14,062 bases of DNA from assembly GCF_003334385.1 (NCBI RefSeq), contig NZ_QOWN01000066.1; one strand, given 5' to 3'. Of this stretch, positions 3,829 through 4,224 are shown piece after piece. The notes under the pieces are model-generated. The model ran no database searches. It had not been told where the DNA came from and saw only the letters and a list, made by a program, of their open reading frames with translations. Source of the DNA: Escherichia coli. GTDB taxonomy: Bacteria > Pseudomonadota > Gammaproteobacteria > Enterobacterales > Enterobacteriaceae. Numbering within the stretch: the stretch's first letter is position 1; every line of letters starts with the position of its first letter. The translations under genes and the position numbers were made by a program.

Positions 3829-4224
3829 CTAACCGCGCATGTCAAAGCCGGATTTTTGAAAATCTCTATAAACTTCCGGATTGTTGAAGGCCGGGAATTT
3901 AGCTTTATGGGCTGCTGACTTTATCGCTTCGCAATAGGCTTTATCGCCATTACTGGTTGATATTTTTAACGCCGTGCCATCCCGGGAGAACTCCATATGC
4001 AACCTGCATTTTTTCCTTTTCCATTTTTGCGGATCATCAAGTTTAGCATTAATTGCATCCCTGATTCCCCGTGCTTGCTCCCCCCATTCATCCTGATCAT
4101 CCCAACGTCCTGAACTGCAACTACCCAGGGCTGTAGTTTTATGGCAATTTGAAGGATGTAATGGCGCACATCCCGCCACAAAGCTGACTAAAATAGCCAG
4201 CATAACGATTTTCTTTACCCCCAT
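3829..4224 (-). CDS. Lipoprotein with a TolA C-terminal domain III-like fold, 131 aa
   Basis: Start taken at the second in-frame ATG (4224), which has a GAGGAG Shine-Dalgarno 6 nt upstream. N-terminus MGVKKIVMLAILVSFVAGC is a signal peptide with a lipobox (VAGC). The mature region aligns without gaps to the E. coli TolA C-terminus as I recall it (IKSAIESKFYD...KTCTLRIKLAPDGMLLDIKPEGGDPALCQAALAAAKLAKIPKPP..VYEVF), including both cysteines. Confidence 0.7.
   Translation of the reverse strand: MGVKKIVMLAILVSFVAGCAPLHPSNCHKTTALGSCSSGRWDDQDEWGEQARGIRDAINAKLDDPQKWKRKKCRLHMEFSRDGTALKISTSNGDKAYCEAIKSAAHKAKFPAFNNPEVYRDFQKSGFDMRG

Follow-up and report, generated by a model that had tools for sequence, protein, structure and literature searches.

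The window analysed here, a stretch of 14,062 nucleotides from Escherichia coli (contig NZ_QOWN01000066.1), is the transfer/oriT backbone of an I-complex plasmid, its best match being an E. coli IncK2/Z plasmid (99.8%). At positions 3829..4224, on the minus strand, it carries a gene for a lipoprotein of 131 amino acids (aa) that resembles the C-terminal domain, domain III, of TolA. The question raised by this locus is what such a protein does on a mobile element. Entry of group A colicins and filamentous phages into the cell depends on their reaching TolA domain III, which serves as a hub, and the original prediction, made from the letters of the sequence, proposed either a decoy against those agents or a protein that taps the Tol-Pal system during mating. 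Sequence comparison and structure modelling both confirm the predicted presence of a bona fide TolA domain III fold with its two cysteines, and the gene is best described as encoding a TolA domain III detached and, by prediction, re-anchored at the outer membrane, a member of a large class repeatedly picked up by mobile elements. Action as a decoy is the leading hypothesis for the lipoprotein, and the conjugation alternative is weak.

Homology to TolA domain III and predicted fold

In a Pfam search the protein matched the TolA family PF06519 with an independent E-value of 5.1e-14 and 52.7 bits, aa 44-125 falling on model positions 10-92 of 96. A phmmer search against the TolA domain III (TolAIII) chains 1S62, 3QDP, 2X9A and 1TOL of the PDB gave E-values of about 3e-8, with aa 50-129 aligned without gaps to residues 340-419 of E. 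coli TolA; identity to TolAIII is about 31%. In this alignment Cys73 and Cys98 fall on the TolA disulfide pair Cys363-Cys388, as the original prediction had claimed, and both residues are invariant in all 49 aligned sequences. Judged by these scores, the homology to TolA is far beyond chance.

An AlphaFold2 model built on the 49-sequence alignment reached a predicted local distance difference test (pLDDT) score above 90 over approximately aa 41-131 (3832..4104, minus strand), where it adopts the three-helix, three-strand fold of TolAIII. The modelled secondary structure comprises helices at 41-59, 65-68, 95-107 and 116-122 and strands at 72-79, 85-93 and 124-130. With Foldseek the model was superposed on E. 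coli TolAIII (3QDP) with a root mean square deviation (rmsd) of 1.2 A over 85 columns and a template modelling (TM) score of 0.90; further matches were 2X9A_B, 1TOL, 1S62 and Vibrio TolAIII, the TonB C-terminal domains being much weaker. Profile search and comparison of a predicted structure with TolA domain III had been named in the original prediction as checks of its claim, and both bear it out.

The homology concerns domain III only, because the protein scores under the cut-offs of both full-length TolA equivalogs, TIGR02794 (45.2 bits against 59.45) and NF007065 (53.8 against 213). These profiles match by their last 80-110 positions or so, and the protein, at 131 aa, is devoid of the N-terminal anchor and of domain II. 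The phage family PHROG 5772 matched over its full length, all 128 profile positions (1-128) being covered by aa 4-131 with an E-value of 1.8e-60. A Foldseek search of the viral structure library BFVD returned nothing significant for the model, and Rfam had no match in the whole window.

Compared with TolA domain III (approximately residues 333-421), the lipoprotein shares the fold, the disulfide pair, the 80 gapless residues and a hydrophobic-Asp-hydrophobic-basic pattern in the C-terminal edge strand. It differs in its low identity, in the replacement of the lysines that contact colicin A, in an extra tether with a Cys loop, and in having neither transmembrane anchor nor domain II, hence no coupling to TolQR and the proton-motive force. 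Its lipid anchor is predicted at the opposite membrane, and it is encoded on mobile elements.

The likeness to TolA is already recorded by automatic annotation and is therefore not new, a point on which the original prediction overstated its novelty. The NCBI annotation pipeline PGAP names the product 'cell envelope integrity TolA C-terminal domain-containing protein', and older records have 'tolA family protein' or 'membrane protein involved in colicin uptake'. What is newly found is the context: the tandem prophage slot, the chromosomal copies, the ratio of non-synonymous to synonymous substitution rates (dN/dS), and dozens of related families. Literature matches are genome papers only, naming a prophage 'TolA' in passing. 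One of the candidates, EDL933_2012, is discussed as 'TolA' with a 32-fold induction by ciprofloxacin (PMC11125564); in the supplement it is listed as a tail fibre protein, it could not be tied to this family, and it was dropped.

Translation start, lipoprotein signal and tether

PGAP begins the plasmid coding sequence at ATG 4260, giving 143 aa, and the extension at 4225-4260 is not conserved. The reading of 131 aa from ATG 4224 to the stop codon at 3829-3831, which the original prediction used, is better supported because of its Shine-Dalgarno sequence, the aligned starts of its homologues and the point at which homology begins. The Shine-Dalgarno sequence GAGGAG (4231..4236, minus strand) lies 6 nt before ATG 4224 and is kept in the prophage, Citrobacter and Enterobacter copies; the homologues in these three settings start with GTG at the same aligned position, and nucleotide homology to the prophage and chromosomal copies starts only about 30 nt upstream of ATG 4224. 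In the prophage copy PGAP calls a product of 124 aa, truncating the signal peptide.

The signal peptide read from the sequence (aa 1-19; 4168..4224, minus strand) consists of the n-region MGVKK, the h-region IVMLAILVSFV and the lipobox V-A-G-C, with Cys19 encoded at 4168-4170 and Ala at position +2. It ends in a lipobox of the form [LVI][ASTVI][GAS]C (MGVKKIVMLAILVSFVAGC), and the lipobox Cys is invariant in all 11 family members. The protein is thus predicted to be lipidated, as a substrate of Lgt and LspA, and for enterobacteria the Ala at +2 predicts Lol-dependent sorting to the outer membrane.

Following the lipobox Cys, a flexible tether (aa 20-40; 4105..4167, minus strand) contains an extra Cys pair, C27/C36, in CHKTTAxGSC, and the longer motif CHKTTAxGSCSSGRW is invariant across the family. 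The first 40 residues score a pLDDT of only 50-57 in the AlphaFold2 model, where a bridge joins residues 28 and 37. The invariant SSGRWDDQDEWG was considered as a mimic of the TolB-binding epitope of colicin E9 and rejected; a linear motif of the colicin E9 type is unlikely because W41-W47 are modelled at the start of helix alpha1.

Insertion at the trbC-nikB junction

The lipoprotein gene lies between trbC (731-3034, plus strand; open reading frame (ORF) call and annotation), which is convergent with it, and the relaxase gene nikB (4328-7039, minus strand; ORF call and annotation of a near-identical plasmid), as originally placed. The latter is directly upstream on the same strand, with 103 nt between the nikB stop and ATG 4224. 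By blastn the window matched the IncK1 plasmid RCS56_p over 77-2943 at 99.5%, the match picking up again at 4329 at 87.6%, so that 1385 bp (2944..4328) replace 309 bp of the IncK1 junction. The distance from trbC to nikB is 220 bp in RCS56_p, and in an IncI1 plasmid 37 bp separate the two stop codons. The G+C content is 36-45% over 3000-3800 against 49-60% in trbC and nikB. These comparisons support the earlier view of an AT-rich insert: the lipoprotein gene is acquired cargo placed in an otherwise conserved trbC/nikB junction. Like a moron, it stands between conserved backbone genes and is missing from close relatives, namely the IncK1 and IncI1 junctions.

The part of the insertion common to non-plasmid copies is solely a minimal cassette, the ORF with a leader of about 30 nt (3826..4256, minus strand; blastn, 82-88% nucleotide identity to prophage and chromosomal copies). 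The remainder up to trbC is an AT-rich variable spacer with no supported gene (3035..3828), confined to the same plasmid set and differing in length between plasmids. Its ORFs at 3148-3441, 3501-3731 and 3495-3755 had no family match in PHROG or PADLOC, and the spacer is treated as non-coding filler. The last 91 nt of trbC (2944-3034) also belong to the inserted segment and are exchanged relative to IncK1, and for this reason the C-terminal 30 aa or so of trbC differ from those of IncK1 plasmids; the tblastn coverage of TrbC falls to 83% in the latter.

About 600 plasmids in PLSDB carry the gene at 99% identity or more (tblastn). The carriers are IncK2/Z and related I-complex plasmids (IncB/O/K/Z-type) of E. 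coli and Shigella sonnei, in which the position after nikB is stable, and pO157 of enterohaemorrhagic E. coli. Window positions 3674..6349 are shared with pO157 at 99.1% (locus 4876-7546; blastn and pO157 annotation). This 2.7-kb I-complex fragment of pO157 comprises the 3' two-thirds of nikB, a remnant of about 2 kb, and the intact lipoprotein gene; it sits between the hok/psiAB leading-region genes and toxB on a plasmid that is non-conjugative and non-mobilisable. Among 5426 complete E. coli genomes, 1270 carry the gene, at 551 plasmid places with about 99% and at 818 chromosomal places with about 87.6% nucleotide identity.

Regarding transcription of the plasmid copy, read-through from the nikAB operon is the simplest source that can be inferred from the gene layout, since the ORF lies 103 nt past nikB on the same strand, behind a weak A/U-rich hairpin and no sigma-70-like site. 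A consensus scan found no such site in 4225-4330, the spacer between nikB and the ORF. The hairpin (4279..4308, minus strand) is a perfect 12-bp A/U-rich inverted repeat followed by UUUUCUUUG; with its outer stem the RNA folds at -17.2 kcal/mol (z=-2.5). It failed a scan for G+C-rich terminators and is possibly a weak terminator or an attenuator. A further hairpin, stable, of 9-11 bp and containing G+C, lies at 3745-3771 on the minus strand, about 60 nt past the lipoprotein stop; it has no U-run and falls within the block shared with pO157.

Prophage and chromosomal copies and the wider family

The chromosomal copies of E. coli sit in lambdoid prophages, with the Q antiterminator and tRNA genes on one side and those for holin, lysozyme and Rz on the other, a slot in which the Shiga toxin genes lie in Stx phages. 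The prophage homologue is 88% identical in protein sequence to the plasmid lipoprotein and follows a second lipoprotein gene, of 142 aa, whose TolAIII part is nearer to TolA. This tandem was found in an E. coli prophage (locus 10001-10975) and in the isolated lambdoid phage mEp460 (locus 3922-4350 and 4501-4896), where the consensus scan placed a promoter-like site with 10 of 12 matches before the pair and a terminator-like hairpin after it. Copies 80-86% identical occur as lone genes in ordinary chromosomal surroundings in Enterobacter, Citrobacter, Serratia, Raoultella and Klebsiella oxytoca.

A third, outwardly unrelated family of lipoprotein-TolAIII proteins is represented on the Klebsiella pneumoniae IncF plasmid pKlebA1 (6812-7246) by a protein of 144 aa with the lipobox ITAC, whose gene adjoins hha; this family is present on more than 250 Klebsiella plasmids. 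The plasmid 131-aa, prophage 142-aa and Klebsiella 144-aa families all belong to PHROG 5772 and share the signal peptide, lipobox, short linker and TolAIII domain as well as the location on mobile elements. Unlike the plasmid lipoprotein, to which they are about 26-32% identical, the 142-aa and 144-aa proteins have no Cys-loop tether and stand nearer to TolA: K379 and K396 are still present in the 142-aa protein, and the two share the ending ...LDF(K/R)(P/L).

Pairwise comparison of the plasmid, prophage, Citrobacter and Enterobacter copies gave dN/dS values of 0.06-0.12 at dS of 0.5-1.2. Because dN/dS is about 0.1, the gene is judged to be functional and under strong purifying selection wherever it is located.

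An exhaustive search found 111 relatives among representatives of clusters at 50% identity. Dozens of these clusters, of 120-150 aa, combine a signal peptide, a lipobox, a short linker and TolAIII. Of 56 full-length relatives (110-170 aa) at least 41 have a lipobox, and none of these has Asp at +2. This class of short TolAIII lipoproteins appears to be unstudied. One of its subfamilies has a C-x7-C-x8-C loop past the lipid-bearing Cys. The neighbourhoods of four distant relatives were short contigs or ordinary chromosomal genes. A 61%-identical relative (locus 324-4822) lies about 500 bp downstream of genes for an HlyD-like adaptor and an ATP-binding cassette (ABC) exporter with a C39 peptidase, and of a small hydrophobic ORF. 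Such a gene order is typical of a microcin or bacteriocin export locus, a single anecdote for a link to bacteriocins.

A possible decoy for Tol-dependent invaders

The favoured reading, put forward tentatively and short of being probable, is that the lipoprotein competes with the tip of TolA as a decoy for Tol-dependent invaders. The secreted protein would be lipidated at Cys19 and, to judge from the lipobox and the Ala at +2, would end up in the inner leaflet of the outer membrane. A disulfide-stapled tether of about 20 residues would there present a detached TolA domain III to the periplasm. Because the inner-membrane anchor and the long helical domain II are absent, such a protein could bind only, with no energising by TolQR and no transduction of force. 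It may compete for ligands that beta-augment the C-terminal edge strand of TolA, and the outer-membrane copy would then meet colicins of the colicin N type and the g3p of filamentous phages before TolA does, making the host tolerant. Moderate amounts of decoy could trap invaders without collapse of Tol-Pal, as TolB binds TolA only weakly in comparison with colicin N. As a single-gene cargo cassette, the gene has inserted downstream of nikB in IncB/O/K/Z-type plasmids and from there reached pO157, and it has also settled in the Q-to-holin 'moron' slot of lambdoid prophages and in Enterobacter and Citrobacter chromosomes.

The predicted outer-membrane anchor, the preserved pattern of the beta3 edge and the recurrence on phages and plasmids make the decoy plausible. 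Positions were compared by the alignment, in which the TolA residue number equals the lipoprotein residue number plus 290. According to PMC4339652 and PMC7391070, TolB, colicin N and the N1 domain of g3p augment the C-terminal strand of TolA, and in the former source D418P or K420P in TolA abolishes the binding of TolB, colicin N and g3p. This beta3 edge strand, APLDFKP in TolA, reads SGFDMRG in the lipoprotein, D418 corresponding to D128 and K420 to R130, inside the predicted strand 124-130. Position 128 is Asp in 10 of the 11 members of the close family and position 130 is Lys or Arg in 8 of them, and the D128/R130 pattern is also kept in most other short TolAIII lipoproteins. Should a ligand be shared with TolA at all, it would bind along the edge that TolB, colicin N and g3p use rather than at the site for colicin A.

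The affinities reported for TolA bear on the cost of a decoy. PMC4339652 gives dissociation constants of about 40 uM for TolB and about 1 uM for colicin N, and the affinity of TolA for TolB is placed at 40-200 uM in PMC7391070. A decoy that spares Tol-Pal is physically plausible because the affinity of colicin N for TolA exceeds that of TolB about 40-fold. The I pili, the type to which the plasmid's own thin pili belong, are the receptor for the filamentous phage If1 (PMC3102678), and 2X9A, one of the Foldseek matches of the model, is the N1 domain of If1 g3p crystallised with the TolA C-terminal domain. This link between If1 and I pili plausibly gives a selective reason for the lipoprotein on this plasmid backbone.

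Several results weigh against the decoy or are neutral. Colicin A augments TolA strand 375-380 and contacts K368, K379 and K396 through cation-pi interactions (PMC3365938). In the lipoprotein these lysines are replaced by E78, S89 and H106, and LLDIKP of TolA reads ALKIST; within the close family E78 and S89 are invariant and position 106 is His, Gln or Leu, never Lys. Because the three contact lysines are replaced, colicin A at least is probably not trapped by the lipoprotein. Binding of g3p was modelled with AlphaFold2 as a single chain patterned on 1TOL, in which a Gly/Ser linker joined the fd g3p N1 domain to the mature lipoprotein; N1 homologues of If1, IKe, I2-2 and PEar6 were part of the alignment. 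Both domains fold, with pLDDT of about 80 and about 95, and the overall predicted TM score is 0.48. When 1TOL was superposed on both domains of the fusion, in a comparison made without a TolAIII control, the rmsd was 16 A and the TM score 0.52, no better than for one domain alone. No docking of the 1TOL type was seen, and the fusion model leaves g3p binding without computed support.

The pattern of conservation is a further difficulty. Identity to TolAIII is only about 31%, whereas the family, tether included, is about 80% conserved from genus to genus, a pattern that favours a specific, conserved partner over simple mimicry. The dN/dS of about 0.1 likewise reflects strong conservation rather than an arms race, and is against the decoy or at best neutral. 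The chromosomal copies in housekeeping neighbourhoods suit a physiological role as much as defence. The defence models of PADLOC-DB gave no match to the lipoprotein at E<=0.01, and a full-text literature search returned no paper on this protein and no functional study.

A TolA C-terminal domain set free in the periplasm reportedly competes with TolA and makes E. coli colicin-tolerant, with a leaky outer membrane (Levengood-Freyermuth, Click and Webster, 1993), which is what the decoy hypothesis predicts. Those laboratory fragments were artificial, soluble, overexpressed and identical to TolA, whereas the lipoprotein is natural, divergent, predicted to be lipid-anchored, and under purifying selection. 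Small outer-membrane lipoproteins that protect the host, working in the envelope against phages, DNA or serum from outside, are encoded by several phages and plasmids, including Llp of T5, Cor of phi80 and HK022, Bor of lambda and TraT of F. The target that Llp and Cor inactivate is FhuA, a surface receptor, and the surface is also where TraT and Bor have their effect. Like these, the lipoprotein is the product of a single small gene carried as a moron or cargo on temperate phages and conjugative plasmids. Unlike it, none of them copies a periplasmic co-receptor, and they have no sequence or fold relation to it.

A wider proposal, held somewhat more loosely than the decoy itself and best regarded as doubtful, is that outer-membrane-anchored copies of TolA domain III form an overlooked, widespread 'co-receptor decoy' class of immunity against filamentous phages and those colicins that depend on Tol. 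Such copies, borne by plasmids and temperate phages and sometimes arranged in tandem with different specificities, would intercept the invader's TolA-binding epitope at the outer membrane.

Alternative functions

The strongest competitor to the decoy, unlikely though worth retaining, is an endogenous modulator of Tol-Pal that binds the TolB N-terminus or another TolA partner (e.g. CpoB) at the outer membrane. Its effect would be to adjust how Pal is mobilised, how the outer membrane is tethered and how vesicles form; in prophages, with its gene just ahead of those for lysis, it would help to loosen the envelope. The beta3 strand that TolB augments is kept (PMC4339652, PMC7391070), purifying selection is strong, chromosomal copies stand in housekeeping contexts, and in prophages the genes for holin, lysozyme and Rz follow directly. 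A review of Tol-Pal also holds that altering TolB interactions could regulate vesicle production (PMC7391070). However, the low affinity of TolA for TolB (40-200 uM, same review) means that TolB could be sequestered only by a very strongly expressed protein, a constitutive tol phenotype would burden a plasmid or lysogen, and the promoter-like and terminator-like sites that the prophage pair has of its own suit expression in the lysogen, not a pure role in lysis.

A slightly less likely reading is that of an adaptor for a different partner. The C-terminal fold shared by TolA and TonB serves generally as a beta-augmentation module, which here may dock a 'box' peptide of an outer-membrane or periplasmic protein outside the set of known TolA ligands, and the conserved Cys-loop tether would add specificity. 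The surface residues E78, S89, H106 and K102 are specific to the family and differ from TolA, the tether CHKTTAxGSCSSGRW is invariant, family members from different genera are about 80% identical, against about 31% in the comparison with TolAIII, and short TolAIII lipoproteins form dozens of divergent clusters at 50% identity. Against this, gene neighbourhoods differ in every context, so that no candidate partner emerges, and the gene moves alone; the partner must therefore be a conserved host protein, which points back to the Tol system. The conserved, family-specific surface and the Cys-loop tether argue for a specific partner and keep both the modulator and the adaptor under consideration.

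A function in conjugation is very improbable. Co-transcribed with nikA-nikB, the gene would aid transfer or the formation of mating pairs through the Tol-Pal system of donor or recipient, and its location on the nikB strand 103 nt downstream, the failure to find a sigma-70-like promoter between nikB and the ORF, where there is only the weak A/U-rich hairpin, and its stable position in IncK2/Z and related plasmids are in keeping with this. A conjugation-specific role is nevertheless unlikely because the transfer regions of the conjugative sister plasmids IncK1 and IncI1 do not have the gene, while it is kept intact beside a truncated nikB on the non-mobilisable pO157, and also occurs in prophages and chromosomes where the neighbouring genes have no part in transfer. 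The same distribution, which takes in a plasmid unable to conjugate (pO157), lambdoid prophages and the chromosomes of Enterobacter and Citrobacter, disfavours the earlier suggestion that the protein taps Tol-Pal during mating. A neutral hitch-hiker or decaying remnant without current function, to which the variable AT-rich junction and the undetected promoter might point, is excluded by a dN/dS of about 0.1 over dS of 0.5-1.2 and by intact signals (a good Shine-Dalgarno sequence and conservation of the start codon, the lipobox and four structural cysteines), the ORF being intact in about 600 plasmids at 99% or more, and is given next to no weight.

If the decoy hypothesis is true, a mobile, lipid-anchored TolAIII would be a new route to bacteriocin and phage tolerance, by receptor mimicry in the periplasm; alternatively, the lipoprotein may serve its host by regulating Tol-Pal and the formation of vesicles. 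The gene is carried by about a quarter of complete E. coli genomes, on the virulence plasmid pO157, on the IncB/O/K/Z plasmids that spread extended-spectrum beta-lactamases and in lambdoid prophages at the stx position. Any phenotype would matter for competition in the gut, for therapies based on phages or colicins and for the ecology of plasmids.

Other features of the window

The remainder of the window follows the order of the transfer backbone. The 3' part of a DsbC-family gene, at the position of trbB, precedes trbC, and beyond nikB come nikA/mobA and then the leading region. In the leading region two copies of an element of about 250 nt (9013-9261 and 11883-12128) are 94-95% identical, GC-rich, with internal hairpins, and 2.87 kb apart; they resemble single-strand initiation or Frpo-type leading-region elements, with no match in Rfam. 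A 42-nt AT-rich element with its own hairpin (GTGAAnTTTnTTCAC) is repeated 67 nt apart (9356-9397 and 9423-9464), just upstream of a gene for a small helix-turn-helix regulator (9465-9716). The C-terminal 35 codons or so of an Rpn-family nuclease gene (9979-10950, minus strand) are repeated at 75% identity in a short ORF downstream of it (9747-9956, minus strand); the two repeats (9768-9877 and 9991-10100) look like a partial duplication of the 3' end.

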